Shown here: in pieces, positions 484 through 60,890 of the stretch
Layout of the letters: each line of letters opens with the position of its first letter
How positions within the stretch are numbered: position 1 is the stretch's first letter
DNA from: Anaeroplasmataceae bacterium
Lineage (GTDB): Bacteria > Bacillota_I > Bacilli_A > Acholeplasmatales > Anaeroplasmataceae
Reading direction: 5' to 3'
Assembly (NCBI GenBank): GCA_051874255.1
Contig: JBJEFR010000113.1
Span: forward strand, 421-64,420
Length of the DNA stretch: 64,000 bases
Position numbers and translations under genes: made by a program
The notes under the pieces: model-generated
Told to the model about the DNA's origin: nothing
The model's database searches: none
What the model saw: only the letters and a program-made list of their open reading frames with translations

Positions 484-1554
484 TTACTCTTCTATATATC
501 TCTCTACTCTATTTCTTCCATTATCCTTAGCTTTATATAATGCTTTGTCAGCTTGACTTAACGCAATATTATAATCAAATGCATCTTGATCCATAACAAT
601 AGTGAATCCTACACTTACTGTGACTTTATTATGATTAGATTTAATATGTTCAATATTTAAATCATAAACTTTTTTTCTAATATCCTCAGCTATATTATAA
701 ATAGATTCATCAAATATATTTTTTACTATACCAATAAATTCTTCTCCACCATAACGATAAAAGTTTACATCCTTATAAGTATTACTTATATCTAATAATA
801 CATTTGAAACGGCAATTAAACAGTCATCACCCATTTGATGAGAATAGGTATCGTTATACGTTTTAAAAAAATCTATATCAAGCATTATTACACTAGTAAT
901 ATTTTTATCAGTTTTTAAAACCTCAAAAAGCTCAATTCTATTACGTAATCCTGTTAAATAATCTGTCTTTGCAGATTCCTCTGCAAGTCTTTTTAAATCT
1001 ATATTATCGAGCATTATCTTATTTGAAAAATGAGATAAAAATAAGCATAATGATAATGTAGATAGTACATTAAAAATCTCATGAACCTTAGTATCATTAT
1101 TTTTAAATACTAATACTAAAACCATATAGATTATTGAATTCATAGCTGTGAATGTATCTATTCTCCACTCATAATCTAAAATAATAATAGGATTTAAAAA
1201 TAGGAAAAATAATATTGTCACACATACCATATCAGGCTGAAGAACAATACTTGAAAATGCTAAATATAAATAAAATGCAGTAAATAAAAAATATGAAAAA
1301 AATAATATATATTTCTTAAATACCTTTTTAAACAAAAATATAAAACCTAATATTATAGATAATACTCCTATAACTATCAAATAAGGAACAAACATAACCT
1401 TATATTCTGTAACAATAAGACTTACAGGAATACTACATATATATATTATTAATATAGCTATTAACGTAACTAGTAATATTCTATAATTTCTTTCATTTAT
1501 ATCTTTTCTATTTAGTTGTATCTTCTTTTTGTTTAACTCCATCATTATAATCAA
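484..1554 (-). CDS. Membrane-bound diguanylate cyclase (GGDEF domain)
   Basis: 356-aa ORF. The N-terminal ~180 aa is strongly hydrophobic (several TM helices). The C-terminal GGDEF domain has an intact RYGGEEF motif. No RxxD I-site is seen upstream of it. Confidence 0.8.
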   Translation of the reverse strand: MIIMMELNKKKIQLNRKDINERNYRILLVTLIAILIIYICSIPVSLIVTEYKVMFVPYLIVIGVLSIILGFIFLFKKVFKKYILFFSYFLFTAFYLYLAFSSIVLQPDMVCVTILFFLFLNPIIILDYEWRIDTFTAMNSIIYMVLVLVFKNNDTKVHEIFNVLSTLSLCLFLSHFSNKIMLDNIDLKRLAEESAKTDYLTGLRNRIELFEVLKTDKNITSVIMLDIDFFKTYNDTYSHQMGDDCLIAVSNVLLDISNTYKDVNFYRYGGEEFIGIVKNIFDESIYNIAEDIRKKVYDLNIEHIKSNHNKVTVSVGFTIVMDQDAFDYNIALSQADKALYKAKDNGRNRVERYIEE

Positions 1555-6198: not shown

Positions 6199-6858
6199 AT
6201 TATTATTTTCATCTTTTTGCTTCTCACTTAATATTTCTTTAAGTATTTCTTCTCGCATATCACTTAAAATCTCTGAACGAAGCTTATCCTTCTCTTCTTT
6301 TAGCTTTTTATTTTTACTACTATTTAAGAATAAATTAACTGATTCAAGGATTATAATACCTACAAAGAATACAACTAATAATCCATATATTAAAGTTTTA
6401 TTTGAAGCAATTTTCCCTAGGTTTAAGAAATTAAATGTTCTTACATACTTTCCTACAAGCATATCCTCAGTAACACGTTCTATATCAACAATACCATTAT
6501 TGTTGTCTCCAAGCATCTCAAATCCATCCGTATATACTTCATTAATTCTATGAACTATATACATTCCTTCTGTTGAACCTTTAGATGAACGATATACTAT
6601 TATATCTCCTTTTTTTAATGTGCTATAATCACACTTTTTAAATATAATAGTATCCCCAGCATTAATTGTAGGCTCCATACTACTAGTAGGAACATAAGAG
6701 TATGAATATCCAAAATAGCTAACAGGCTTTGAAGTTCTAACAGCAATTACATTACATATTAGCATATATAATACTAATAATACTATAGTAATAGTTAAGA
6801 CTGTTCCGGATATTGTAAATATTTTTTTTACTTTTTTATTCATCGTCATCAGAGCCAT
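6187..6858 (-). CDS. SipW-type (archaeal/ER-type) signal peptidase I with a C-terminal TM and Lys/Glu-rich tail
   Basis: 223 aa with an N-terminal TM. Ser box PTSSMEPT, His box IVHRI, GDNN box, then a second TM (LIYGLLVVFFVGIIIL) and the charged tail KKLKEEKDKLRSEIL...KQKDENNNKKE. Overlaps the preceding gene by 23 nt. Confidence 0.8.
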   Translation of the reverse strand: MALMTMNKKVKKIFTISGTVLTITIVLLVLYMLICNVIAVRTSKPVSYFGYSYSYVPTSSMEPTINAGDTIIFKKCDYSTLKKGDIIVYRSSKGSTEGMYIVHRINEVYTDGFEMLGDNNNGIVDIERVTEDMLVGKYVRTFNFLNLGKIASNKTLIYGLLVVFFVGIIILESVNLFLNSSKNKKLKEEKDKLRSEILSDMREEILKEILSEKQKDENNNKKE

Positions 6859-9568
6859 GACTATCTATAATTTTTTTTCTCTCCTCAGGACTAAGATCAG
6901 TCCATCCATCAGCCTTTTTCTCAGCTTCCTTAGCCTGAGCCTCTAGTGCTTTACGTCTTATAGCTTCTCTTCTTCGACGTAGTAGCTCTTTAGGATCAAT
7001 ACTTTCCTCAACTGGAGTATCCTCTTCATCCTCTTCCTCATGAGCCTGAGCATTTTGACGATTTTTAGCTTCTAAGGCTCTTTGTCTTATAGCCTCTCTT
7101 CGTTTACGAAGAGCTTCTTTTATTTCGTCATCATTTGATGGAGAATTGCTAGAGATATTTTCAGTATTAGTTTGCTCCTCTGAAGCCTTCTTTTGAGCCT
7201 CAAGGGCACGACGTCTAATTATATCCCTATTACGTTCAAACATAGATCTAGAATCCATTTGAGTTGAACGCATACTTGGTTGATGAGTGCTTTGTTCATC
7301 TGAAGACTGAACGATATCAGAATCTAAACTAAATAATTCATCACGCTGTTGACTTTCAAGAGCCTCTCTTCTTCGTCTAAGCTTAGTTCTTGCATCCTCT
7401 TCCTTATGCTCATTATCTTCATCATCTTCTTCAATTACGGCTGTGCTATTTTTGTTTGCTAGAGCCTTTTGTCTAATAGCTTCTCTTCTTCGACGTAATA
7501 ATTCTTTTGGATCAAGTGTTTGTGTTGAAGTTTCTTCATCATCGTCCTCATCTTCAACCATATCATTTTCATCCATAGAATCTAAGGCCTTTATTCTTTC
7601 ATCAATGCTTCTTACTAAAGAATCATCGTCTTCATCTTCATCATCCTCTAGTTCTGCATTCTTTAAAGCTTCTTCCTTCGCTTTAGCTGCCGCAGCCTTT
7701 TGTCTAATTATTTCTCTTCGACGACGTAATAATTCCTTAGCATCAAGATGTGCCTTTTCAGCCTCAAGCTTACGCTCTTCCTCAGCAATACGCTCTTCCT
7801 CAGCAAGTCTTGCCTTTTCTGCTTCTTCACGTTCTGCCTTCTTACGTGCACGTTCCTCAGCTCTCTTTGCCTTCGCAGCATCTTGTTCAGCCTTTATTGC
7901 TGCACGACGCTCCATAAGCTTTGCCTTGGCTTCAGCCATACGAGCTTTTTCTGCAGCTTTTGCTTGATCACTTGCAGCCTTCGCGGCCTCACGTTCTGCC
8001 TTTTTACGTGCCATTTCTTCCTCATGAAGCCTTTGAGCCTCTTCTCTTTCACGAGCACGTTTTTCAGCACGTTCTGCCTTTTCCTTAGCTAATTTAGCTA
8101 AACGAGCTTCTCTTGCCTCTTGTTGACGTATCTTTTCTTCAAGCATTTGAATTTCTGCAAGAGTGTCATCATATTCCTTTTTAGTATTGTTATAATCAAT
8201 TTCTTTTAATCTTGTAACAGTTTCTAATACTTCTGATTTTTTCTTTGCTCTTTCAAGCTTAATTGGAAGTGGAACCTCATCGAAGCTACCTTCAATAGGC
8301 ATTTCAAATAATGGAGGATAAATAGAATTTAATACCTCCTGCATTTCTCTAAATACAAGCTCTAAGGAATACTTTTTCTCCATTCCTGAATTAACCTTAT
8401 CATCTAATGATTGTTGATAAAATTCTTGAGTTTTATTTAAGAAATACTCACTCATCTCAAACTTTTCAAGCTTTTGACTTGTTGGATTAAACTTATACTC
8501 ATCATCCATTTTAGAAAGCATTTTTGCCTTACGAGTAGTAAATTCCTTATATGGGGTATTTTCAGGGTCTAAATCAGTATCGCCATTAAAATATAGCATT
8601 GTACCTACAGCCTCTGACATAATACCATCAACTGTTTTAGCTAATTCATCTGGATACTTATTCTTCTTTTCCTTAACATTAACATCAAACGCTAATTCGT
8701 TATAACGATCAAGGAAAACCCAAGTATTATAACATACCTTAAACTCAGCATTCTTTAAAATAATATTAGTTTTTAAAATAGGAGGTGTTACCTCTTTATA
8801 GTTCTTTAAATCCTGCATTAATTTAGAAGAACGTAGAGTCTTATAATTTTCATGTATTGCTTGAGCTTTTTCAAATGTTTCACGGGCAGCCTTGATTTGG
8901 GCATCAAGCTGACGTTCCATCTTAACTGAAAGCTCAACCTTTACTTTAGTTTTTTCAAACTTAAAGCTATTTGTTACTGTCGTATTTTTAGTCTCATAGC
9001 TATCAAGATTCTTTTTCATAATTTGAACTCTTAATGATAAGAACTTACAAATACGATTGATTAATGTTTTTATAAACCTATTTTCATAGATTCCAATTTC
9101 ATCCTCAGCAAATGTAGTTAATAGCTTAGATGGGATTATATCTCCCTCTTCAGTAACTAACTTAATATTTTGAGTATGACTAGCCAAATGACGTACTGTA
9201 TCTGAATTAACCTTTTTTACCTTTTCCATAGGAACAACATCTTGTTCATATCGAATAGCTTTTTTAGGATCCTTTAATATTTTTGAAATACTTTTAAAGC
9301 ATGTCTCCAAAATAGGTATAAAAGACTTTTCAAATATTTTAGTCTCTCTTATTGTTTTCGAATAAACTGTACGAGAACCACCTTTAATTTGATTAAATAG
9401 CATATCACCTAAAGATGATTTTTCTCTAGCACTATCGAAGTTTTCGCTGAGAATGCGGTAAAATTCACTTACAGAATCATCATTTTCTTCTTCAGTTGTA
9501 GGAGGAATTATCTCTTCACTAGCACTTTGTAAAGATTCCTTTTCATTTACTTCTGCCACATTACTCAC
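6836..9568 (-). CDS. 910-aa cytoplasmic protein: ~470-aa globular N-domain, ER/K-rich helix, and six RRRREAIRQKALEA-type basic repeats separated by poly-acidic linkers
   Basis: Uninterrupted ORF with no TM or signal peptide. The short YENRFIKTLINRI segment resembles the N-terminal region of McrC-like partners. No PD-(D/E)xK nuclease motif was recognised. Confidence 0.6.
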   Translation of the reverse strand: MSNVAEVNEKESLQSASEEIIPPTTEEENDDSVSEFYRILSENFDSAREKSSLGDMLFNQIKGGSRTVYSKTIRETKIFEKSFIPILETCFKSISKILKDPKKAIRYEQDVVPMEKVKKVNSDTVRHLASHTQNIKLVTEEGDIIPSKLLTTFAEDEIGIYENRFIKTLINRICKFLSLRVQIMKKNLDSYETKNTTVTNSFKFEKTKVKVELSVKMERQLDAQIKAARETFEKAQAIHENYKTLRSSKLMQDLKNYKEVTPPILKTNIILKNAEFKVCYNTWVFLDRYNELAFDVNVKEKKNKYPDELAKTVDGIMSEAVGTMLYFNGDTDLDPENTPYKEFTTRKAKMLSKMDDEYKFNPTSQKLEKFEMSEYFLNKTQEFYQQSLDDKVNSGMEKKYSLELVFREMQEVLNSIYPPLFEMPIEGSFDEVPLPIKLERAKKKSEVLETVTRLKEIDYNNTKKEYDDTLAEIQMLEEKIRQQEAREARLAKLAKEKAERAEKRAREREEAQRLHEEEMARKKAEREAAKAASDQAKAAEKARMAEAKAKLMERRAAIKAEQDAAKAKRAEERARKKAEREEAEKARLAEEERIAEEERKLEAEKAHLDAKELLRRRREIIRQKAAAAKAKEEALKNAELEDDEDEDDDSLVRSIDERIKALDSMDENDMVEDEDDDEETSTQTLDPKELLRRRREAIRQKALANKNSTAVIEEDDEDNEHKEEDARTKLRRRREALESQQRDELFSLDSDIVQSSDEQSTHQPSMRSTQMDSRSMFERNRDIIRRRALEAQKKASEEQTNTENISSNSPSNDDEIKEALRKRREAIRQRALEAKNRQNAQAHEEEDEEDTPVEESIDPKELLRRRREAIRRKALEAQAKEAEKKADGWTDLSPEERKKIIDSHGSDDDE
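6935..7745 (-). repeat. Dispersed in-frame coding repeats (~40 nt cores) encoding (P)KELLRRRREAIRQKA
   Basis: Similar DNA words such as tagcttctcttcttcgacgta(g/a)ta occur at ~6961, ~7477 and ~7711. More diverged copies lie at ~7081, ~7201 and ~7361. Confidence 0.7.
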
Positions 9569-9591: not shown

Positions 9592-11154
9592 TTAGCTTAC
9601 CTTCTTTAAATCATTAATAAAATCAATTGATACCTTAAATGCATTCTTACCAAATAGCTTATCAAGTAATGTAATTAATTGATCTAGCTCATTACGTAAG
9701 AATGATAGATTTAAGCTTTCAAATTTACGTAAAATCTTGTTACATAGCATATAATCTAAACCTTGAATTTCAGTCATTCCACACGCAATGTATACAGGAA
9801 CGAATAGTTTAATTTGCTTCATAATACGGTTACCAAACGCAATTTTGAATTTTTCTTGAATAAATTCATCTAGTTTAGCAAAATTTTCCATTACACGCGT
9901 AGATAATTGAATATCTCTTTGTGCTTGTTTAAATAATTCGTCTAAATATTCAAATGACATTTGAACATTTTCAGTATATGGTGCATCTACCAATTCAGCC
10001 TTATGGTTAATTACAATAGGTAGAGCACGGTCATAAACCTTATCTGTGATTGTAAATGTTGAGTCGTCCTTATTGGCTGTACCAACAAACCAAATATTTT
10101 GATTAATTAATAGCTTACCATTAATTAATAGCTTAGGATCTAATGGATCTGTACCTGGAACCAAGTCAATTAACCATTGAGTTGGATCTGGCATTTCCAT
10201 TACAGACAAGAACTCTGCAAAATAATACTCAATACGTGCTAAGTTCATCTCATCAAGTACTATAAAGTTAGGCTTATCACTATAACCTGCCATATATACA
10301 CTTCTTAAGAAGTCTGTCTCATTAAATCTCTTAGTAAACTCATTTAAATAACCTAAAAGCTCAGCACGGTCACGCCATGATGGTTGAACAGAAATAATAC
10401 TTGTAGGCTTATTAAAGAATTTTCCCATCGCATATGGAAGTGATGTTTTTCCTGTTCCTGAAATACCTTCAAGAATAAGAACCTTAGTTGCACCCATTCC
10501 ACCAAAGAATCTCGCAATTATTTCCTTTGAATAATATAGCTTTAATTGACTTGCAGCATATCCAATAAATCTATCAATTAATCCAGGTAAATCTAACATA
10601 TCATCACTTGACATAATAGTATATTCTGGATTTGACTTATAATATGTATCAACCTGATTAAGCTTAATAAATCTTCCTTGGAATATTTCTTCTTCCTCAT
10701 CATCCTCAGGCTTACCTTGTGGGTTAAATAAGTCATCAGGATTAATATCAGTATCTCCACCAGATATTTGACTTACACGAAGTGCTAATATCTTATTCTT
10801 TTCATCAACTAAATCAATTACCTTTTTATTTAGTAATTGTACTTGGTCAACTAATTCATCTTTTTCAATTTCTCTTCTTCTAAAACGGAAATATCTCTTA
10901 AATAATACAACAATTAAAGTAACTAATAAAACCACAAAGGCAATATTAATAAACAATACTATAATATATGCAACCCAATCAGACCAATTCCAATACTGAT
11001 TATGAATACTTGCGTCCTTTAAATCTGAAATATATCCTTTAATATCTGTGTAAAAGGCATTTTTAAATGCTCTTCCGATCGTTTTGAAGAATTTTCCAAT
11101 ATTTTTAAAAATAGTTTTTAAAAATTCAGTATAATACTTCGCAAATTCCTTCAT
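9592..11154 (-). CDS. Membrane-anchored AAA+ ATPase of the AAA_5 / McrB-like type
   Basis: 520 aa. N-terminal amphipathic segment, one TM (WVAYIIVLFINIAFVVLLVTLIVVLF) followed by KRYFRFRRRE, and a coiled coil. Walker A LEGISGTGKTS, Walker B FIVLDEMNLARIEYYFAEFLS, then VGTANKDDSTF and QPSWRDRAELLGY. Confidence 0.7.
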   Translation of the reverse strand: MKEFAKYYTEFLKTIFKNIGKFFKTIGRAFKNAFYTDIKGYISDLKDASIHNQYWNWSDWVAYIIVLFINIAFVVLLVTLIVVLFKRYFRFRRREIEKDELVDQVQLLNKKVIDLVDEKNKILALRVSQISGGDTDINPDDLFNPQGKPEDDEEEEIFQGRFIKLNQVDTYYKSNPEYTIMSSDDMLDLPGLIDRFIGYAASQLKLYYSKEIIARFFGGMGATKVLILEGISGTGKTSLPYAMGKFFNKPTSIISVQPSWRDRAELLGYLNEFTKRFNETDFLRSVYMAGYSDKPNFIVLDEMNLARIEYYFAEFLSVMEMPDPTQWLIDLVPGTDPLDPKLLINGKLLINQNIWFVGTANKDDSTFTITDKVYDRALPIVINHKAELVDAPYTENVQMSFEYLDELFKQAQRDIQLSTRVMENFAKLDEFIQEKFKIAFGNRIMKQIKLFVPVYIACGMTEIQGLDYMLCNKILRKFESLNLSFLRNELDQLITLLDKLFGKNAFKVSIDFINDLKKVS

Positions 11155-11182
11155 ACGCTCTCTCCTCTCCTATAGATAGCTT

Positions 11183-12163
11183 TTATTCAACAGTTGAATC
11201 ATTTGAAGAATTATCTTCTCCATTTTCCTTCATCTTTTCTTCTTCACTAATACTTTCTTCTTTTTTCTTTTGTTCTTCTAAAGCTTCTTTTCTTAATTGT
11301 TCAAGTAATTCTTGCTTCATCTTTTCCTTTTCAGCCTCTAGCTCAGCTCTCATCTTTTCTTTTTCTTCTGTTGCATTTGCTGAAATCTTTTGTGTCTTAA
11401 TTGACATAACATTGAATATTACCATTACAAGTTCAAAAATCAAGAATAAGATAGTAGGTATTATTATTACAATAATAAATCCCTTTTTAGGATTAGAAAC
11501 CCATTTAATAGTTTTTCCAAATCCGCTAAGCTTTCCAGTATATACAGCCTCTATATCAGACAATGATACATTTTGTGCGTATCCCTTATAAACTAAATTA
11601 GCTGCGCCTCCATTACTTGGATCTGCAGTATAAATTGTATAATCATATTGTGTACCTAAATAACAATCTCCTTGTGTTACATATCCGGTAACAGCACCAC
11701 TACTATTCTTTACAACCTCTACGATTCTATGGGTATTTAAAAATCCAGTAGCAGCTCCTGTTGGATTTGGTGATATAGTATCCCAGAATGTAATAATATC
11801 TCCAACCTGGAATTTTGTTTTATCCTTCTCTTTTACAACCTTAACAAGAATTAAATCATTTACCGTAAATGAATCCTTTCTTGCCACAGCCCTAGATTCA
11901 TCAACAATAGCCTCATCTGTTGAACCAGGACTCATTGATTGTGACAATACTACTTCATATCCACGACCAAATATAGACTTTACAGAACGAGCGTCACTAC
12001 CTTTAATTTGTGTTATAGAAAATATCAATAACAAGAAAATAAAAATATAAAATATAGTATTTAGAGTTATATTAACAATTTTAATAATTTTATCTTTCTT
12101 ACTTAAAGGAAGCTTATCATTTTCATCATTAACTTTTACTTCATCAATAGTATTATTTTCCAT
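11183..12163 (-). CDS. Second SipW-type signal peptidase I paralog with a long insertion and a C-terminal TM plus charged coiled-coil tail
   Basis: 326 aa with an N-terminal TM. Ser box LSQSMSP, His box NTHRIVEV, QGD box, a second TM (GFIIVIIIPTILFLIFELVMVIF), then EEKEKMRAELEAEKEKMKQELLEQLRKEALEEQKKKEE. Confidence 0.7.
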   Translation of the reverse strand: MENNTIDEVKVNDENDKLPLSKKDKIIKIVNITLNTIFYIFIFLLLIFSITQIKGSDARSVKSIFGRGYEVVLSQSMSPGSTDEAIVDESRAVARKDSFTVNDLILVKVVKEKDKTKFQVGDIITFWDTISPNPTGAATGFLNTHRIVEVVKNSSGAVTGYVTQGDCYLGTQYDYTIYTADPSNGGAANLVYKGYAQNVSLSDIEAVYTGKLSGFGKTIKWVSNPKKGFIIVIIIPTILFLIFELVMVIFNVMSIKTQKISANATEEKEKMRAELEAEKEKMKQELLEQLRKEALEEQKKKEESISEEEKMKENGEDNSSNDSTVE

Positions 12164-12263
12164 GACTTACCTCCTGAATACAAACACTTTATTATATTTT
12201 AACACAAATGAAAAAAAAATAAAACACCTTAAATATATATATATTTAAATATAATATCTATGA

Positions 12264-12292
12264 ATAAAAAAAGCCGATGCTAAAACATCGAC
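12264..12292 (-). terminator. Intrinsic terminator after the 334-aa TasA-like gene
   Basis: Minus strand reads GUCGAUG-uuuuag-CAUCGGC followed by UUUUUUUAUU. Confidence 0.8.
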
Positions 12293-12332
12293 TCTTTTAT
12301 TCATTTTTAGATTAATTTAAATAATTAACAAA

Positions 12333-13337
12333 TTAAGCTCTTTCAGTTGTGAATGATAAATTAATTGTTAATGTTTGACCCATAATTGCATCGAAGCAGT
12401 CAGCATCAAATCCTTCTAACCAGAATGTGAATCTTACACGGTAAACTAAGTTAGAGGTATTAGCAGATGTATAAATAGCGTTTGCCTCTGTACCAAATCC
12501 TGTAGTTAAAGTTGGCTCTGTTGGATATGAAACACCATTTAAAGCACCATCACTAACAGCTGATAAGTATGCATTTGCAGCATTAGTTTCACCTAATGTT
12601 TGTCCAAAATTATATGCTAGGTCATCTGCAGTATTTGAACCATTTCCAGCTTTTAATGTTACACCATTATCAAATCCAAATATGTTAAGAACTCTTTCTG
12701 AGGTACCCCATTCAACTGCGTTTTCAGGTTTTTGACCACCCTTACATAACTTTTGCATAGTATCGCGCTCTTCACTACCTTCATATACTTCAACAATTGA
12801 TCTTAATGCATTTACAGCATCAACCTTAACTGCAGTACCTCCGATAAATGAACCATCATCATAACTAAAGTCATTTAATATAACATATGATTTATCAGCA
12901 TAATCACTTTCTACGGTATTTCCAGTTGATGAGAAATAAACACTTTGAGAAGGTCCACTTGTACATACATATAAATCAAATTGTAAATACATTGATGATG
13001 CACCAGTACCTGCCTCAACTATTGCATTATTAGAGAATTTCTTAAATGCAGTAGGTGTTGCAACTGGAGTAGTTGCATAATCATATGTTAGTGGTTGTAG
13101 TTCTAATCCTGTAAGAGCTTGATTTGAACTATCTGTAAGGATTGTTACATCTGAACTAAATGTCTTTCCATCAGTTGATAGTAATACTCCGTTTGTTCCA
13201 CCTTGAACGTTAACCTTTAAATCAGCTGTTGCAGTAGCGTTCATTGTAAACCAAGCGTAAGTTGTAGTTCCTAATGCTACGACTGCAAATGCCATAGATA
13301 GGATACTCATCAATAATTTTCTTGAAATTTTTTTCAT
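12333..13337 (-). CDS. TasA/camelysin-like secreted protein with a SipW-dependent-type signal peptide
   Basis: 334 aa. Signal anchor ends in GTTTYAWFTMNA (compare GGTWAAFND in B. subtilis TasA). C-terminal motif FWLEGFDADCFD and terminal strand TLTINLSFTTE. Strong AAAGGAG RBS. Confidence 0.65.
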   Translation of the reverse strand: MKKISRKLLMSILSMAFAVVALGTTTYAWFTMNATATADLKVNVQGGTNGVLLSTDGKTFSSDVTILTDSSNQALTGLELQPLTYDYATTPVATPTAFKKFSNNAIVEAGTGASSMYLQFDLYVCTSGPSQSVYFSSTGNTVESDYADKSYVILNDFSYDDGSFIGGTAVKVDAVNALRSIVEVYEGSEERDTMQKLCKGGQKPENAVEWGTSERVLNIFGFDNGVTLKAGNGSNTADDLAYNFGQTLGETNAANAYLSAVSDGALNGVSYPTEPTLTTGFGTEANAIYTSANTSNLVYRVRFTFWLEGFDADCFDAIMGQTLTINLSFTTERA

Positions 13338-13426
13338 AATTATTTTCTCCTTTTTTCTTTATATTTATTTGTTTTTTGTTTCCCTTTTTTAAATTTTTGC
13401 AATCTTCAACCGATTACTTTAGACTA

Positions 13427-13455
13427 ATTATAACATATTTGGAAATTATATTCAA
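13427..13455 (-). promoter_or_regulatory. Sigma-A type promoter for the 334-aa TasA-like gene (leader has no riboswitch)
   Basis: Minus strand reads TTGAAT - 17 nt - TATAAT, about 90 nt upstream of the start. Confidence 0.65.
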
Positions 13456-13460
13456 TACAG

Positions 13461-14903
13461 TTATTCCCAAATTGTTACAAAAGTCCATTTTAAGTCTTCT
13501 GGATTATCTGAACGAGCCCATACCTCTTCATCAAAATTCCATGGGGTAATTTCACCATTAGCGTCTAGCTTACCCCAGCCTTTAAATTTGTGGATTCCAT
13601 TTATTGAATAGATGTCCTTGATTGGACTTTGTTCACTGATTTTTTGACCTTGTATTTGATGAACAACCTTTGTTCCTGAATTAATATACACACCTTGCTC
13701 TTCATCATATACCTTGAATCCTGAATTTACTACCTCTCCTGTTTCAGGATTTGTAATCATGTATGTAAGTTCAACCGGTTCCGTTTGAATTTCAAATGAA
13801 GTGAAAGCCATCTTCATTTGAATTGTTTGATTCCAAATTGAATCCATACAGTCAGCATCCCAACCTTCAATCCATAGGAATATATTCATCTTAGCTGTAC
13901 CATTTTGACCATAATTATTTTCTTTGTTTAGATCAAGAATAGTAGCTCCCTCAAGAGTATCAAAACCCTTATAGGTTTGTGGAATTGACGAATAAGATAT
14001 TTCATTTAATACCTGACCTGTTTCATATCCACGAACATTATTGTAGTATGAAAATCCTGCATTTTTATTAAAATCATATCTCGCACCTATTGGCCCAACA
14101 TAATAATCTTCTGTTAAATCGGTTGCATAAGATCCAACTCCTGTACCAATCTCATAGATTTTGTAATTATTGTCTCTTACACCATTGTTTGTGATGCAGG
14201 TTGAAAACCTTATTGCATCAGACGCAAGAGTTTTGAATTCAAAATCAGGTTGGTTATCTTCAGATTTATCATATCTGAATAGCTCTCCTGTTAGGGGATT
14301 ATATGTATCAAATGAACCTGCTAATCTATTAGGGAAACCAATAGAATCAGCATTTTTAACAGTCAATTCAGTCTTGGGAACATATTCTCCATTGTAGACT
14401 AATTCTCTACTTGAAAAATATACCCTTCTATCTGACGCATCATCAGCCATGAAATACAAATCTAAATTAATAAATTCAGTATCTCTAACTGTCTTAACCT
14501 GGTTAAATAAATTTTTGAAATTTTCTCCATCTGTTGAGGTAACAGGCTCAAGAGACATTTTTTGAGCAAATTCTTCTTCATAGTTATCTGCATCTAGGTA
14601 TTCTGTTGTACCTGATGCATTCTTAAATGTGTAGCATGGCTCTTTATCTATATAACCAATACCATATCCATTAGCCTTAGCCAATATAGCCACCTTTATT
14701 TCTTTAGCAGATAACTGGTTTTTATAGTTTTTACCATCAATAGATATTTTTACACCATTCGCAGAATTAACCTCTAATTCCATATCATCAAACCAAGCGT
14801 TTGTGTTAAGCTTAAACCACGCAAATGTAACAGTCCCCGCTACTACTATAAGTAGTAATAGTGAAAATAAACTAATATAAAGTTTTTTAGACAAATTGAT
14901 CAC
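13461..14903 (-). CDS. TasA-like secreted protein with a C-terminal Listeria-Bacteroides-repeat-like extension
   Basis: 480 aa with a GTG start. Signal anchor ends in GTVTFAWFKLNT. Motif LWIEGWDADCMD, then IQMKMAFTSFE. The C-terminal ~110 aa ends in HKFKGWGKLD...PWNFDEEV...TFVTIWE. Confidence 0.6.
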   Translation of the reverse strand: MINLSKKLYISLFSLLLLIVVAGTVTFAWFKLNTNAWFDDMELEVNSANGVKISIDGKNYKNQLSAKEIKVAILAKANGYGIGYIDKEPCYTFKNASGTTEYLDADNYEEEFAQKMSLEPVTSTDGENFKNLFNQVKTVRDTEFINLDLYFMADDASDRRVYFSSRELVYNGEYVPKTELTVKNADSIGFPNRLAGSFDTYNPLTGELFRYDKSEDNQPDFEFKTLASDAIRFSTCITNNGVRDNNYKIYEIGTGVGSYATDLTEDYYVGPIGARYDFNKNAGFSYYNNVRGYETGQVLNEISYSSIPQTYKGFDTLEGATILDLNKENNYGQNGTAKMNIFLWIEGWDADCMDSIWNQTIQMKMAFTSFEIQTEPVELTYMITNPETGEVVNSGFKVYDEEQGVYINSGTKVVHQIQGQKISEQSPIKDIYSINGIHKFKGWGKLDANGEITPWNFDEEVWARSDNPEDLKWTFVTIWE

Positions 14904-14930
14904 TTGTTATCAACCCCTTTATTAGTTATA

Positions 14931-15034
14931 TTAAAAATAAAAGTTGCCACCTTTATTTTTACAAGAATGACAACTGGCTATCCTTTTTGGACCCTGTAGC
15001 TTTGCGTCACTAGATTACTCTAGTTTTGCCAACT
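14931..15034 (-). promoter_or_regulatory. c-di-GMP-I (GEMM-I) riboswitch candidate with intrinsic terminator, in the leader of the 480-aa TasA-like gene
   Basis: Minus-strand RNA: AGUUGGCAAAACUAGA-GUAA-UCUAGUGACGCAAAGCUACAGGGUCCAAAAAGGAUAGCCAGUUG, then GUUGUCAUU...GGUGGCAAC-UUUUAUUUUU. It shows the GCAAA, GNRA-capped hairpin and ACGCAAAGC signature of GEMM-I. Confidence 0.78.
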
Positions 15035-15049
15035 ATTAACACATAATGT

Positions 15050-15077
15050 ATTTTACCACATTGCCAAATGTTGTCAA
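15050..15077 (-). promoter_or_regulatory. Sigma-A type promoter driving riboswitch copy 1
   Basis: Minus strand reads TTGACA - 16 nt - (TGg)TAAAAT, ending about 15 nt upstream of the aptamer. Confidence 0.65.
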
Positions 15078-15086
15078 TAAATAATT

Positions 15087-15827
15087 TTAGATTATCTTTT
15101 CATCGTATGCACTAAATGACATACCTATTTTGATAGAACCACCACTAATTGAGTTTTCTCCTTCATCAGTACAATCAAGATCTTCACCATCAAGCCACAT
15201 TATAATAGAATATTTTATAACATCACCTGGCTTAAAGGTTTTAATTGTTTCTGTAAAAATAGTCATATCAGTAAAAGTTTTCACTGTATGAAGCTTTTCA
15301 AAGGTATAATGAGTTTCGTTTGCTGGATCTTCATACTTTTTATATACTATTCCTTCAGTATCATCACCCTCGAAAACCCAAAATCTTACGGCACTATCAA
15401 CATTTCTAGTAACTGAAGTAATATTTAGTGTTGCATCAATATTACAAACCTCAGTTCCTTCATTCTTTAAATAAAATGTATATCCTATATAATCCCCAGC
15501 CTTAGATTCATATCTACCACCACCGCTATTAATTATTGGATATTTATTAACGCTTCCCATTTCTATAGGCTGAGCATTAGCTAAAAGATTTCCAGTTAAA
15601 ACCTGTCTTGCTCCATTAGGATCATCTATTTTTTCATATAAACTAATACCAATTCCACTTAAATCATCAGGAACGCTAATAGTAAATCCTCCTGTGCTCG
15701 TACCATAGAAGGTTACAACTCCAATGGTTGCTGAAAGTAAAAGGAAAATTATTAGTAATATTATTAAGATTTTCTTTTTTCTAAACAATGATACTGATTT
15801 ATCAGTAACTACATCTCTTTTACTCAT
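15087..15827 (-). CDS. TasA-like secreted protein (divergent signal-peptide junction)
   Basis: 246 aa with a signal anchor ILIILLIIFLLLSATIGVVTFYGTSTGGFT. FYLKNEGTEVCNI segment, motif MWLDGEDLDCTD, and terminal strand SIKIGMSFSAY. Confidence 0.55.
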   Translation of the reverse strand: MSKRDVVTDKSVSLFRKKKILIILLIIFLLLSATIGVVTFYGTSTGGFTISVPDDLSGIGISLYEKIDDPNGARQVLTGNLLANAQPIEMGSVNKYPIINSGGGRYESKAGDYIGYTFYLKNEGTEVCNIDATLNITSVTRNVDSAVRFWVFEGDDTEGIVYKKYEDPANETHYTFEKLHTVKTFTDMTIFTETIKTFKPGDVIKYSIIMWLDGEDLDCTDEGENSISGGSIKIGMSFSAYDEKII

Positions 15828-15842
15828 AACTTTCCTCCTTCT

Positions 15843-15948
15843 TTAAAAAATAAAAGTTGCCATATCCTTAATATGATACAGCAACTGGCTATCCTTTTGG
15901 GACCCTATAGCTTTGCGTCACTAGATTACTCTAGTTTTGCTTTAACCA
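15843..15948 (-). promoter_or_regulatory. c-di-GMP-I (GEMM-I) riboswitch candidate with intrinsic terminator, in the leader of the 246-aa TasA-like gene
   Basis: Minus-strand RNA: GCAAAACUAGA-GUAA-UCUAGUGACGCAAAGCUAUAGGGUCCCAAAAGGAUAGCCAGUUGC, then an 11-bp terminator stem GUUGCUGUAUC/GAUAUGGCAAC followed by UUUUAUUUUUU. The aptamer core is nearly identical to the copy at 14972-15034. Confidence 0.78.
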
Positions 15949-15949
15949 T

Positions 15950-15978
15950 ATTATAGAATAATTTATTTTGATAGTCAA
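15950..15978 (-). promoter_or_regulatory. Sigma-A type promoter driving riboswitch copy 2
   Basis: Minus strand reads TTGACT - 17 nt - TATAAT, immediately downstream of the stop of the GGDEF-EAL gene. Confidence 0.7.
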
Positions 15979-15984
15979 TTATAA

Positions 15985-17679
15985 CTATTCTTCTTTGTCA
16001 TCATCTTCATCAGCTTCATCTTCATCTTCTTCCTCATCTTCATCAGCATCAGCCTCTTGAGGAGAAGGTGTTTTCTTATCATTATCTTCTTCATTAGCTA
16101 CATTTGTATCATCTTGTGATGTATTTACATCATCTTGTGTTGATGTATTTGTATCATCTTGTGATGTGTTCACATCATCAACTGTAGCTGCAGCATCATT
16201 TTCTTCATTATTAGCTGTAGGTGTATCCTCTACTTGTGAAGCCTCAGTCTTTGGTTTAGCTTCTTCGGCCTTCTTAGTATTTTCCTCCCACTTACGATAT
16301 CTAATGAAATCTAAAACCTCTGTCTCTGGCATAGGCTTTGAATAATAATAACCTTGACCATAAATAATATTTTGTGATTTAACATAGTCGACATTTTCCT
16401 TAGTTTCAATTCCCTCTGCAACAACTAAACGTTTTGTTAATTCAGCTGATTCAGTAAGCATTTTTACAAACTTTTCTCTTATTTCATCATTAGAATTTTC
16501 ATCAGCTAAGAATTTTCTATTAAGCTTAATCATGTCGATAGGTTCTTTTTGAATACGAGTTAATGTTGAATAGTCAAGCTCAAATCCATCAACAGCTGTC
16601 ATAAATCCGAAATCTCTTAGCTTCATTAGATTTTGCTTTACATTATCAACCTTTTCAAACATTGCAAATCCGCCAATTTCTAATATAACACTTTTTGGAT
16701 TTACTGATGCTTTTTTAGCAACTAAAATCAAATCATCAGCTAATGATTCATAGGTTAACTGCTTAATAGATAGGTTTAAGGAAATATGAGCATTTCCTTC
16801 CTCCATAAGCTTTTGAACATCACTTAGCATCTTTAATGCTAAAGTAAGTCCCCATTTACCTACCCAATATATATCACCTGATTGATCCATAATATTAATG
16901 AATTCTGCTGGTGGTAGAATACCACGCTTTGGATGGTTCCAACGCATTAGGGCTTCAAATCCATAAATATTATTGCTTTCAAGATTCATAATTGGTTGAT
17001 AATATAGGCAGAACTCTTTATTAGCAATAGCCTGCTTAACCTCTTTGAAGAACTTAAAGTTAGAAGTTTCTTCCTTAGTTAATGTATTATAGAAGACAGT
17101 ATATTTTGAACCGCCTTCTCTTTTTGAGATATATGTTGCAAGCTCAAGATTTTTAATTAAATCTGGAACAGTTTTACCACATGAAGGATATAAGCATACT
17201 CCTGCACTAGCTGTTAAAACGATTGACTCACTTGTAGATACAAACATTTTTTGTTTGACATCATTTAATAATGCCTCTGCAATCTTACAAGCATTTTCAT
17301 AGGTTAAATTTTCTTTAATAAAGATTAAAAACTCGTCATTGTTATACTTAGAAATTACAGTACGATATGGTAATCTTTTAGAAAATCGGTGTGCTAATTC
17401 CTGTAGGAATTCATCACATTGTTCTCTACCAAAAATTTCATTAATATTTGTAAAGTTATCTATATCAATATATATAAGTGTAAAATCACCAAATTTTCCA
17501 ACCTTTTTAATATATGAAGCGATAGCCTTATTCATATCATTTTTGGAAATAGTTTTATCATTAAGAACTTCATTTTCCTCTTTAAATCTCTTTACATTAT
17601 ATTTTATTAGGAAAAAGATTAGTACTGATATTAAAATTACTACTACTATAGCCACACATGCTAGGATTATTTCTTTCAT
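15985..17679 (-). CDS. Membrane-anchored GGDEF-EAL protein, degenerate in both domains, with an acidic repetitive C-terminal tail
   Basis: 564 aa with one N-terminal TM. The GGDEF position reads NNDEF. The EAL domain keeps FEALMRW, EGIE and QG, but has EIGG where E-x-T-E is expected and VDGFELDYS where DDFGTGYS is expected. The tail is rich in D/E/T/N. Confidence 0.75.
   Translation of the reverse strand: MKEIILACVAIVVVILISVLIFFLIKYNVKRFKEENEVLNDKTISKNDMNKAIASYIKKVGKFGDFTLIYIDIDNFTNINEIFGREQCDEFLQELAHRFSKRLPYRTVISKYNNDEFLIFIKENLTYENACKIAEALLNDVKQKMFVSTSESIVLTASAGVCLYPSCGKTVPDLIKNLELATYISKREGGSKYTVFYNTLTKEETSNFKFFKEVKQAIANKEFCLYYQPIMNLESNNIYGFEALMRWNHPKRGILPPAEFINIMDQSGDIYWVGKWGLTLALKMLSDVQKLMEEGNAHISLNLSIKQLTYESLADDLILVAKKASVNPKSVILEIGGFAMFEKVDNVKQNLMKLRDFGFMTAVDGFELDYSTLTRIQKEPIDMIKLNRKFLADENSNDEIREKFVKMLTESAELTKRLVVAEGIETKENVDYVKSQNIIYGQGYYYSKPMPETEVLDFIRYRKWEENTKKAEEAKPKTEASQVEDTPTANNEENDAAATVDDVNTSQDDTNTSTQDDVNTSQDDTNVANEEDNDKKTPSPQEADADEDEEEDEDEADEDDDKEE
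16105..16180 (-). repeat. Imperfect 21-24 nt tandem coding repeats (DDVNTSQ/DDTNTST units) in the acidic tail
   Basis: The word atcatcttgtg recurs at 16108, 16129 and 16153. Confidence 0.6.
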
Positions 17680-20138
17680 TAATTCCCACCTGCTTTTCCA
17701 CTTGTTTTATTTTCACTTGCAACTTTACCAGTTTTTAATAATGCAAAAGCATCTTCCTTTGATAAAGCTTTACCTATATAGTATCCTTGGATAATATCGG
17801 CACCAAACTTTGCAACGATATCCTTTTGAATCTTAGTTTCTACACCTTCACAAATTACCTTATCTCCTAATTCCTTAGCAAGAGATATAATTTTTGAAGT
17901 TAAAACCTTACTAAAACGGTCAGTTTCAATATGCTTAATAAATTCCTTATCAACCTTAATAGTATCAATAGGTAGCTCCTTTAAATACAACATTGATGAA
18001 TATCCAGTACCAAAGTCATCAAGATGCACAGAAATACCACGATTCTTTAAAATCTTTAATTTCTCAACAACAGTTTGGAAGTTTTCCATTAGGAATGTTT
18101 CTGTTACTTCCACTGCAATAGAACCTGGCTGAAGATTATTCTTTTCAAATTCATCAAGTAAATCAGCAACGAATCCAGCTTGAACGATTTGAGCAGGACT
18201 GACATTTACTGATATATGAATATCATATTGTTCCATTTCTTTTGCTGTTTTTAAAACATCCTTAGTAATAAAATTACCAACATCGATAATAAATCCATTT
18301 TTTTCAGCTAACTCAATATAAACCTGTGGAGATATTCCCGCATATTTTGGATTATTCCATCTTAATAAAGCTTCAAATCCACAAACTCTTTCTTGATTGA
18401 TTTCATATTGTGGTTGATAGAACATTACGAATTCGTTTTTAGCAATAGCTTGCTTCAAATCCTCTTCCATTTCTCTATCCTTTTGGGCCGCATTTTCTAG
18501 ATTAGTATCATATTTAGCAACCATTCTACCTGCAGAATTTTTAGCACGCTCACAAGCTATTCTTAGCTTATCAATTAGCATATCGTGAGTTGTTTCACAA
18601 TCTCCATCCATATCAGATCCTAAAAGACCTACAGCAGGACGAAGCATTATTTCATTATTATTTATTTCTATAGGTGCCTTTAATTCATTAATTAATGTAT
18701 CTGTTTTCATCATCGCATCAGCTTCATTATGCTCTGTAGTTAATAGTACAAACTCATCTGCACCTATATGAAATACATGGTATCCTTCATATATTTGATG
18801 TAATACATTAGAGAAAAATGCAAGTACATCATTTCCGGCCTTAAATCCTAATAGGGTATTTACATTTTTAAATCCCTTTAGATTAGTAATTAAAAGTAAA
18901 TATGGATCTCCTACAGCCTTATATTTAGCTTTAGCTTCTCTATAACATCTATCAAGAACAATAGCATTATCATCAGCTGTTACAGCACTCTTTGTAGAGC
19001 TTGAAATTAGTATTTGTTCATTATTATATTCTTCAGTTATTACTCTTCCTACGATAGAATAATCACCGCTTCTTTTTAATGACATAAATTCAAAATAAAC
19101 ATTCTCTTCTACCTTTTCACCATTTTCATCTACTGGTGGTACATATTCAAGTACAAAGGCTTTTTGTGCCTTTATTGCATCAACAAGATTAATTCCCTTT
19201 ACTAAATTAAGCTCCGCAAGGGACTTAATAGGAACAATATGATTTGGAAATGCTACTTTAAATGATTTATTATATTTGACAATACGACCATTACTCTTAG
19301 CAATCAAAACTATATTAGCTGTTTTGGTATTTACACCTGCATCAATTCCTGATGATTTAATTAATTTCTTAATTAGTAGTATAAGTACCACTGCAAATAA
19401 AATTAATACTAATGAAATTCCACCAATATACGCAAATCTTAATTTTGAAAGATTACTAGAAAATTGAGTAACTAACGTTTTATCAACAACTCTAACTAAA
19501 TTAAATCCCATGAAATCTTTTATCGCCATATATGCGTCTATTTCATTATTATCACCAACTAAAATATCTAATTCTATTGTAAATACTTCATCAGATGCTA
19601 ATCCTTCAATACATTTATTTACTAAAGCCTCATCATTTGATTTACTTAAGACAGTTATAAAGTTGTTTGTTAAATAACTAGGATTTGATCCTAAAATAGT
19701 ACCATTATCAGCTACAATAAGAATAGGATTAATGTTTTCTAAGCTACAATCTATAGCAACCTTATCTAATAGTTCATTTAGAGGAACCTTTACTACCTGT
19801 ATATCTTTTTTTAGGTATAAAAAATAACCTGATCCTGATTCTTCAACATCACTTGCACTAGCGATTATGTAATTTGATTCACCAAAGACATCAATATCAA
19901 CATTAGCAGACTCAAATTTAGTAGAATCCTCTAAAAATAAAGCATTGTAATTAGATATTTCTGAATATATCCATGATTCGGCAGTACTTAAATGACTAGA
20001 TGTTTGAGCAAGCGCATTATCATTAGAAATAGTTCCGACACCTACTTCATAAGTCACTGTACATCCCAAGAAACATAAGAATAAAAATATTAAGATTATT
20101 ATATACGTTTTTAAGTCCTTAACACGCAACTCGCCCAC
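17679..20138 (-). CDS. Sensor GGDEF-EAL protein with a canonical EAL phosphodiesterase domain and a degenerate GGDEF (GADEF)
   Basis: 819 aa. N-terminal hydrophobic segment, a ~220-aa extracytoplasmic region, then a TM. The EAL motifs FEALLRW, NVS, EVTE, DDFGTGYS, KVDK, EGVE and QGYY are all present. The track start is GTG at 20138; a TTG at 20129 preceded by AGGTGG is an alternative. The stop overlaps the next start as TAATG. Confidence 0.8.
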   Translation of the reverse strand: MGELRVKDLKTYIIILIFLFLCFLGCTVTYEVGVGTISNDNALAQTSSHLSTAESWIYSEISNYNALFLEDSTKFESANVDIDVFGESNYIIASASDVEESGSGYFLYLKKDIQVVKVPLNELLDKVAIDCSLENINPILIVADNGTILGSNPSYLTNNFITVLSKSNDEALVNKCIEGLASDEVFTIELDILVGDNNEIDAYMAIKDFMGFNLVRVVDKTLVTQFSSNLSKLRFAYIGGISLVLILFAVVLILLIKKLIKSSGIDAGVNTKTANIVLIAKSNGRIVKYNKSFKVAFPNHIVPIKSLAELNLVKGINLVDAIKAQKAFVLEYVPPVDENGEKVEENVYFEFMSLKRSGDYSIVGRVITEEYNNEQILISSSTKSAVTADDNAIVLDRCYREAKAKYKAVGDPYLLLITNLKGFKNVNTLLGFKAGNDVLAFFSNVLHQIYEGYHVFHIGADEFVLLTTEHNEADAMMKTDTLINELKAPIEINNNEIMLRPAVGLLGSDMDGDCETTHDMLIDKLRIACERAKNSAGRMVAKYDTNLENAAQKDREMEEDLKQAIAKNEFVMFYQPQYEINQERVCGFEALLRWNNPKYAGISPQVYIELAEKNGFIIDVGNFITKDVLKTAKEMEQYDIHISVNVSPAQIVQAGFVADLLDEFEKNNLQPGSIAVEVTETFLMENFQTVVEKLKILKNRGISVHLDDFGTGYSSMLYLKELPIDTIKVDKEFIKHIETDRFSKVLTSKIISLAKELGDKVICEGVETKIQKDIVAKFGADIIQGYYIGKALSKEDAFALLKTGKVASENKTSGKAGGN

Positions 20139-60756: not shown

Positions 60757-60890
60757 TTTTAATTACTCCTTTCGCCTATAATCCTTTATAGACTTGCTCC
60801 ATGGAAAAACCCTACACATCGACTGACAACGTATATCGGTGTATCGGCAACCTCCCACTTCACAGCCAACTCTTGACCTGAGTCTTTTCT

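Follow-up and report, generated by a model that had tools for sequence, protein, structure and literature searches.

Two c-di-GMP-I class leaders, predicted transcriptional ON riboswitches, precede a conserved uncharacterised gene module in Anaeroplasmataceae

In a 64-kb window of an Anaeroplasmataceae metagenome-assembled genome (MAG), the leader of a 246-amino-acid (aa) open reading frame that we call g1 is a real member of a well-known RNA class, the cyclic di-GMP-I (c-di-GMP-I, or GEMM-I) riboswitches, with unusual ligand-contact bases. The window is the whole stretch of DNA that was scanned, and all coordinates are positions within it. A near-identical second unit, with its own promoter and terminator, lies 900 nucleotides (nt) downstream of this leader 1, between g1 and its paralogue g2, which is followed by a third paralogue, g3. 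We consider it likely that leader 1 (15978..15845, minus strand) acts as an ON switch of transcription, that copy 2 works in the same way, and that the ligand is, most likely, c-di-GMP.

Two members of the c-di-GMP-I class

Rfam 15 covariance models were run over the whole window, where RF01051 (c-di-GMP-I; gathering score 35 bits) recovered both aptamers. Both were also scored with R1, a lineage covariance model that was built on six aptamers and applied to 1.23 Mb of related loci (numbered with the prefix L). Promoter matches come from comparison with a TTGACA/TATAAT-type consensus and best-site ranking over positions 10000-18000, and start sites were predicted from the spacing to the -10 box. 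The elements of the two leaders, and the terminator beyond g3, are as follows.

15950..15978, minus strand: promoter of leader 1, sigma-70-type TTGACT-17-TATAAT, 11 of 12 consensus matches
15877..15951, minus strand: c-di-GMP-I (GEMM-I) aptamer, copy 1; RF01051 57.7 bits, R1 92.9 bits
15845..15886, minus strand: intrinsic terminator of leader 1; 12-base-pair (bp) stem 15886..15855, U-run 15854..15845, stem energy -14 kcal/mol
15050..15077, minus strand: promoter of leader 2, TTGACA-16-TAAAAT with an extended TG, 20 nt from G21 and conserved in L001, L003 and L007
14966..15040, minus strand: c-di-GMP-I aptamer, copy 2; RF01051 55.8 bits (model positions 1-87), R1 96.8 bits
14932..14975, minus strand: intrinsic terminator of leader 2, AGUUGUCAUU...GGUGGCAACU then UUUUAUUUUU; stem about 14975..14942, -11 kcal/mol
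12270..12296, minus strand: strong intrinsic terminator after g3; 12 bp, -13.5 kcal/mol, U7

All the elements that the first-pass annotation had described in leader 1 are present at the places given. The near-consensus promoter that it reported upstream of the 246-aa gene lies where it was placed (15978..15950) and is the top promoter-like site in the ranked interval. The RNA that it quoted, GCAAAACUAGAGUAAUCUAGUGACGCAAAGCUAUAGGGUCCCAAAAGGAUAGCCAGUUGC, occurs verbatim on the minus strand together with its GNRA tetraloop hairpin, ACUAGA-GUAA-UCUAGU, which has a 6-bp stem. The proposed assignment to GEMM-I, for which cmsearch with RF01051 had been suggested as a check, is borne out by a match that spans the full model (positions 1-87, E = 1e-8) at a score well above the gathering score, and by covariation in 120 relatives. 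Leader 1 has a folding z of -3.9 against dinucleotide shuffles, and the element is kept at orthologous loci. The terminator and its U-run had also been placed correctly, although the stem, with arms AGUUGCUGUAUC and GAUAUGGCAACU followed by UUUAUUUUUU, comprises 12 bp rather than the 11 first counted. The GGAGG ribosome-binding site of g1 (15838..15834) stands 7 nt past the U-run and is unpaired in every fold; the g1 ATG follows at 15827.

The bases that contact the ligand are where the two copies depart from the canonical aptamer. Using Vc2 numbering (positions 20, 47 and 92), copy 1 has A20 (15941), A47 (15914) and C92 (15881), and copy 2 has G20 (15030), A47 and U92 (14970). Copy 2 ends in the tail GUCAUU, which aligns with the GUCaA tail of RF03168 and thereby sets the U at position 92.

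The wider family shows that these are not isolated matches. The g3 family (about 85 clusters, every one labelled hypothetical) was used to retrieve 80 genome loci, nearly all from Acholeplasmatales, Anaeroplasmataceae, Acholeplasmataceae, Mariniplasma or Peloplasma. Over 83 related loci, which are also the basis of the synteny counts given below, R1 found 120 aptamers, all on the gene strand and arranged as 63 singles, 11 doubles, 9 triples and 2 quadruples. Nearly all lie immediately upstream of a g1 orthologue, and a second group precedes a distal gene (about 220 aa, with a VTYAWFTYVE signal peptide). Both aptamers of the window are also present in the orthologous loci L001/L002, L003 and L007. 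In an alignment that was fitted to the covariance model, and therefore favours structure somewhat, 96.9% of the cells are paired, against 13-44% with partners displaced by 1-3 columns. Compensatory changes occur in every one of the six tetraloop-stem pairs, 8 pairs show double changes, and the observed covariation score was reached by none of 500 shuffles. The G21-C22/G45-C46 pairs are invariant in 115 of 115 distinct rows, position 47 is an A in all 120 aptamers, and the junction sequences do not vary. At L004, where the g1/g2 orthologue is 46% identical, promoters are accompanied by ordinary leaders (172-273 and 1063-1222), and a permissive Rfam scan found an aptamer in neither. The riboswitches are thus not universal for this gene family, and control has been gained or lost within it.

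Some relatives carry longer arrays. In two Acholeplasmataceae MAGs, four full aptamer-plus-terminator units occupy one leader upstream of a g1 orthologue (L060:5930-6381 and L062:5953-6390), and triple units occur in L044, L049, L051, L064, L065, L072, L050 and L058. A separate single riboswitch lies about 6-8 kb downstream of the g3 homologue in L027-L085 (for example L044:14772-14846 and L072:15697-15773); it almost always has G20/C92 and the tail GCAUCU, and it precedes a gene of about 220-245 aa with VTYAWFTYVE. The presence of this canonical distal riboswitch beside the proximal types indicates that two aptamer flavours are held in distinct slots of one genome.

Predicted switching and the likely ligand

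The terminators overlap the aptamers at a defined place. The leader 1 terminator opens with four bases, AGUU (15886..15883), that also serve as the 3' strand of P2 in the aptamer, where they form the lowest four pairs with AGCU in the Rfam alignment, and the leader 2 terminator likewise begins at AGUU of P2. In both leaders, the minimum-energy fold from the predicted start has the terminator formed and P2 unformed; the terminator fold is favoured over an enforced aptamer fold by 5.3 kcal/mol in copy 1 and by 6.1 kcal/mol in copy 2. Enforcing the aptamer leaves at most an 8-bp hairpin, four unpaired bases away from the U-tract, which on these models should not terminate. A terminator that begins in the 3' strand of P2 was found for 104 of the 120 related aptamers, against 3 of 300 random control positions. 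This count was obtained with a widened detector: the first version, which took hairpins starting at or after AGUU, gave 26 of 120 and was revised after inspection of L044, where, as in other Acholeplasmataceae, the terminator begins 3-4 nt earlier than AGUU, at GCCAG. In the tandem arrays of the Acholeplasmataceae, each aptamer has its own terminator.

Since aptamer and terminator are mutually exclusive, termination would be the default and ligand binding would give read-through, which makes an ON switch the predicted outcome. The first-pass annotation had also proposed an ON geometry. It was right that the 5' arm of the terminator starts in the closing strand of the aptamer and that the aptamer fold removes the pairs nearest the U-tract, but P1 is not the helix that competes with the terminator: the base of P2 (AGCU/AGUU) does so, along with C92.

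We propose that the near-consensus promoter would start the RNA at, or a few nt from, the aptamer core. With ligand absent, AGUU of P2, G91-C92 and the next bases would pair with GAUAUGGCAACU to form the 12-bp terminator, and transcription would stop before g1. With ligand present, AGUU would be held in P2 and C92 would pair with one guanine of the ligand; the four terminator pairs beside the U-tract would then be blocked, and RNA polymerase would read into g1. The independent, like-designed unit at 15077..14932 would gate g2 and g3. There is no terminator between g1 and leader 2, so RNAs that have passed copy 1 and read through g1 would be gated again by copy 2. Copy 1 would thus control g1, and copy 2 would control g2 and g3 in a unit closed by the terminator after g3.

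The position of the promoter bears on helix P1. The -10 box of leader 1 ends 9 nt before G21, and the distance is likewise 8-9 nt in L001/L007 and L003. A start 6-7 nt past the -10 box would fall at A18 (about 15943), which leaves no 5' strand for P1 in copy 1; the transcript therefore probably starts near A18, and P1 is probably absent. Precedent for an aptamer of this kind is the Cd1 riboswitch, in which P1 is not detectable. One candidate for a P1 helix in copy 1, AUAUGGU (15951..15945) paired with AUCAUAU in the loop region of the terminator, was rejected as the switching helix because its 5' strand overlaps the -10 box and precedes the predicted start, and because no equivalent pairing is conserved in L001/L003.

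RNA could also enter leader 1 from the upstream gene, as there is no terminator after 15985. In the minimum-energy fold of such read-through RNA (15951-15905, minus strand), UAUGGUU, which overlaps the -10 box, can pair with AGCUAUA, the 5' strand of P2. Transcripts arriving from the upstream gene might be unable to form the copy 1 aptamer.

Several points weigh against reading these leaders as c-di-GMP riboswitches. The canonical G20/C92 pair occurs in neither window aptamer, A20 is the signature of the GEMM-Ib aptamers that sense cyclic GMP-AMP (cGAMP), and an adenine could pair with U92 in Watson-Crick fashion. In the Rfam alignment, P3 is truncated, with 1 position standing for 13 of the consensus, and the tetraloop receptor is missing: the 13 model positions of its region (CUAAG...UAUG plus upper P3) give way to a 5-nt loop, with the GUAA tetraloop kept. 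Copy 1 is probably P1-less, whereas P1 adds to affinity in Vc2 and pilM. Finally, our motif-level screen for synthases spans the 64-kb window only, and a cGAMP synthase is possible elsewhere in the genome.

By Vc2 numbering, one guanine of the ligand is read by G20 through its Hoogsteen edge, the second is held by C92 in a Watson-Crick pair, and A47 lies intercalated between the two (PMC6140456). Each window copy (A20/A47/C92 in copy 1, G20/A47/U92 in copy 2) keeps one canonical contact. Over the 120 aptamers, the types at positions (20, 92) are G/U in 69, G/C in 36 and A/C in 15; A20 and U92 never occur together (Fisher p = 7e-7, with relatedness ignored). G/U predominates in the proximal arrays, and G/C in the distal riboswitch (20 of 22 cases). 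The copy-1 slot alternates between A20 and G20 from species to species, and C92 and U92 alternate inside single arrays.

It is possible, though unlikely, that at least one of the two aptamers responds to 3',3'-cGAMP, either in place of c-di-GMP or as well as it. Binding by copy 1 would then follow the GEMM-Ib pattern (A-alpha:A20 and G-beta:C92), and copy 2 would take the ligand reversed (G-alpha:G20 and A-beta:U92). The A20 of copy 1 and the U92 of copy 2 are conserved in orthologues, no aptamer has more than one adenine-compatible change, and the types are slot-specific, all of which favours a cGAMP sensor; yet A20 and G20, and C92 and U92, also swap within a slot or an array, which fits tuning for one ligand better than a switch of ligand. 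Mutation G20A makes Vc2 bispecific (c-di-GMP 53 nM, cGAMP 120 nM), A20G turns Gmet_0970 into a c-di-GMP responder, and at a D. acetoxidans locus adjacent G and A aptamers differ in binding. On the other hand, the natural Firmicute A20 aptamer Cbe 1-2 prefers c-di-GMP (30 nM, against 463 nM for cGAMP; PMC6140456), and Vc2 with C92U retains a weakened response to c-di-GMP. Natural A20 aptamers as a whole span a range from about 1200-fold cGAMP-selective to c-di-GMP-preferring.

Genomic context favours c-di-GMP. The flanking genes encode an EAL phosphodiesterase and a GGDEF-EAL protein, and the diguanylate cyclase in the window is of the Asp/GGEEF type and cannot be a Hypr cGAMP synthase: GGDEF enzymes with Asp at the Hypr position and GGEEF make c-di-GMP only, and the hallmark of a Hypr cGAMP synthase is Ser348 with GGDEF. 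DncV/CD-NTase enzymes are an alternative source of cGAMP. Given this cyclase and EAL context and the alternation of bases, we take it that A20 and U92 probably lower or adjust the affinity of c-di-GMP sensors and do not change the signal. With an A rather than a G at position 20 of copy 1, c-di-GMP, the ligand that had been proposed from the outset, is a likely ligand and not a certain one.

We see a slim chance that Acholeplasmatales aptamers with exactly one adenine-compatible contact (A20/C92, or G20/U92, which makes up 69 of the 120) are natural sensors of 3',3'-cGAMP or of both ligands. If they are, G20/U92 would be an undescribed route to cGAMP recognition (G-alpha:G20, A-beta:U92). Canonical G20/C92 aptamers would then read c-di-GMP in the same genomes, giving a two-signal hierarchy over one surface-structure module.

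Two further alternatives concern switching itself. GEMM-I riboswitches of either polarity exist, Cd1 and Vc2 being OFF switches, but we think it very improbable that the window elements are OFF switches or act on translation instead of transcription: aptamer and terminator share AGUU-G-C92 and are mutually exclusive, whereas an OFF switch would require them to coexist, and the GGAGG site is free in all folds. Least probable of all is that the aptamers are decaying relics and the hairpins plain attenuators or terminators without ligand control, since contact bases that depart from the canonical ones, a shortened P3, a P1 that is weak or missing and the loss of both aptamers from the L004 orthologue are set against high scores with both the Rfam and the lineage model, an invariant A47 and invariant junctions, helices kept paired by compensatory changes, and a conserved register of the terminator relative to P2.

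The controlled genes and their neighbours

The genes downstream of the two leaders, and those that frame them, are the following.

15087..15827, minus strand: g1, 246 aa; N-terminal transmembrane helix, TFYG motif, predicted beta-sandwich body, C-terminal MWLDGEDLDC
13461..14903, minus strand: g2, 480-aa paralogue; GTVTFAWF signal-peptide motif and WIEGWDADC motif
12333..13337, minus strand: g3, 334-aa paralogue; GTTTYAWF and WLEGFDADC motifs
11183..12163, minus strand: SipW-like signal peptidase of the endoplasmic reticulum (ER)/archaeal type, 326 aa; separate transcription unit
15985..20138, minus strand: two GGDEF-EAL genes directly upstream of leader 1; syntenic in 57 of 83 loci
484..1554, minus strand: membrane-bound GGDEF protein, predicted canonical diguanylate cyclase; GGEEF with Asp at the Hypr position

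None of g1, g2 and g3 matches a Pfam or NCBIfam family; for g1, an Anaeroplasmataceae MAG encodes an identical product, labelled hypothetical. Common to all three is the C-terminal motif W-[LI]-E-G-x-D-x-D-C-x-D, over which the g1 and g3 profiles align in hhalign with a probability of 90% (E = 2e-6). The signal peptides of g2 and g3 carry an invariant G-T-x-T-[FY]-A-W-F, and 4 of 38 members give weak matches to the SipW-cognate signal model TIGR04088 (best E = 0.009). AlphaFold modelling gives beta-sandwiches, with predicted local distance difference test (pLDDT) values of 78-80 (80 for g1). The products are predicted to be three paralogous secreted or membrane-anchored beta-sandwich proteins, which probably build a surface or matrix structure and would be processed by the neighbouring SipW-like peptidase.

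The description of g1 as TasA-like in the first-pass annotation is not established by these results. Its only structural signal is a weak Foldseek match of the g1 model to the TasA fibre 8aur_A (E = 1.1e-3, probability 0.99, TM-score 0.32/0.33), which stands amid generic beta-sandwich matches. The g3 model has no match in the PDB at E <= 1e-3, and its weak top matches are donor-strand-complemented pilins. The TasA/camelysin family PF12389 (Peptidase_M73) matches none of g1, g2 and g3 at E <= 0.01, and one of 38 family members at E = 0.15. Searched against PDB chain sequences, the g1 and g3 family profiles gave T-cell receptor alpha chains at E > 0.03, which we regard as noise, or nothing. We treat the TasA-like label as a reasonable hypothesis, not a finding.

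The surrounding gene order is kept in L001/L002, L003 and L007: GGDEF-EAL, GGDEF-EAL, aptamer, g1, aptamer, g2, g3, SipW-like peptidase, AAA_5 ATPase and DUF2357 protein. The peptidase, syntenic in 70 of 83 loci, scores 48 bits with NF046067 (SipW) and 32 bits with TIGR02228, in each case under the cut-off. The membrane-anchored AAA_5 ATPase (9592-11154, minus strand) follows the cluster in 69 of 83 loci and, at 51-91% identity, is the best-conserved gene of the module; it also matches the PADLOC candidate PDC-M26A (E = 1e-35). A 910-aa DUF2357 protein with about six copies of a LLRRRREAIRQKA-like repeat (6836-9568, minus strand) comes next in 49 of 83 loci. The AAA_5 and DUF2357 pair resembles McrBC. 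Just past the DUF2357 gene, about 6500-6835 on the minus strand reads as a second, ordinary type-I signal peptidase (...SSMEPTINAGDTIIFKK...GDIIVY...VHRI...GDN).

The genes for c-di-GMP turnover differ in how well their catalytic motifs are kept. In the 819-aa GGDEF-EAL protein, EAL and DDFGTGYS are intact but the GGDEF site reads GADEF. The 564-aa one (15985-17679, minus strand) has NNDEF for GGDEF and VDGFELDYS for DDFGTGYSS, and retains EAL and EGIE. Its terminal tail is long, acidic and of low complexity, and the protein may serve as a receptor for c-di-GMP instead of acting as an enzyme. The protein at 484..1554 is the sole intact GGDEF enzyme in the window, in which the Asp follows the base-contacting Asn by nine residues. 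The large GGDEF-EAL gene itself is preceded by an aptamer in two related loci (L020:537-611, 812 aa; L078:1237-1312, 899 aa), which suggests riboswitch feedback on c-di-GMP turnover; the window's own 819-aa GGDEF-EAL gene has no aptamer upstream. Elsewhere in the window, an S10-Clostridia ribosomal-protein leader (RF03136) at 60772-60871, minus strand, scores 39.8 bits against a gathering score of 35.1 and has a 22-nt insertion in its first hairpin.

As the riboswitch class is textbook, the flagged element is mainly a secure annotation. Its wider interest is that the riboswitches would mark a conserved, uncharacterised module as the main local c-di-GMP output in Acholeplasmatales and Anaeroplasmataceae, Mollicutes-related and largely uncultured bacteria of the gut and environment. 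That module, in which three probable secreted beta-sandwich paralogues are accompanied by a SipW-like peptidase, a membrane AAA_5 ATPase and a DUF2357 protein, offers a testable handle on what these hosts build at a lifestyle switch.

Comparison with known systems

The window aptamers share with Vc2 and RF01051 the G21-C22/G45-C46 junction, the GNRA-capped hairpin, ACGCAAAGC with its intercalating A47, and the P2/P3 arm. They differ from Vc2 in having A20 (copy 1) or U92 (copy 2) in place of G20 or C92, in a P3 that is a 3-4-bp hairpin without the 11-nt tetraloop receptor, and in having at most a very short P1. Whereas Vc2 switches OFF, the window leaders are predicted ON switches that work through a terminator. 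The window aptamers are minimal, at about 75 nt, and the related loci provide a natural series of such minimal GEMM-I aptamers (receptor-less and probably P1-less), with G20A and C92U variants in defined slots, that may help in the study of how affinity or specificity is tuned.

With its A20, copy 1 is like the GEMM-Ib aptamers (Gs1761, Gmet_0970 and pilM of Geobacter) and like Cbe 1-2 of Clostridium beijerinckii, whereas copy 2 has a G. The ON design also follows the principle of the pilM ON switch, in which the terminator sequesters the C92 equivalent (PMC9262584). Unlike GEMM-Ib, the window aptamers stand among c-di-GMP enzymes and not among Hypr GGDEF or exoelectrogenesis genes, and orthologous leaders have either A20 or G20 at this position. 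If Cbe 1-2 is a guide, copy 1 is likely to be c-di-GMP-preferring or bispecific. Copy 2 resembles the c-di-GMP-I-UAU variant RF03168 in its GUAA tetraloop, its A47, its GUCA tail (with U92) and its overall fold. Its score of 51.8 bits, below the gathering score of 65.9, and its G rather than U at position 20 make it a G/A/U hybrid and not a member of that family.

The nearest comparison for the protein module is with the Bacillus operons for matrix fibres, tapA-sipW-tasA/calY: in the window, too, predicted secreted beta-sandwich proteins, with putative signal peptides of the G-T-x-T-F-A-W-F type, would stand beside a SipW-like peptidase of the ER type. The window proteins differ in carrying the invariant C-terminal W-L-E-G-x-D-x-D-C and in having no match to the Peptidase_M73/TasA hidden Markov model, and the window module differs in always occurring with a membrane AAA_5 ATPase and a DUF2357 protein. 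Our literature search returned no paper that joins Acholeplasma, c-di-GMP and riboswitches, or a c-di-GMP riboswitch and SipW.

Tandem c-di-GMP-I riboswitches have precedents in the Bc3-5 triple of Bacillus thuringiensis and in a 2022 survey that lists 347 doublets, 12 triplets and no quadruplets. As in those systems, complete aptamer-plus-terminator units are repeated here on one transcript path, and related Acholeplasmataceae have 2-4 of them per leader. The window units, however, are parted by g1 and each has its own promoter, an arrangement that points to serial, gene-by-gene gating and is unlike the multi-aptamer leader of Bc3-5.

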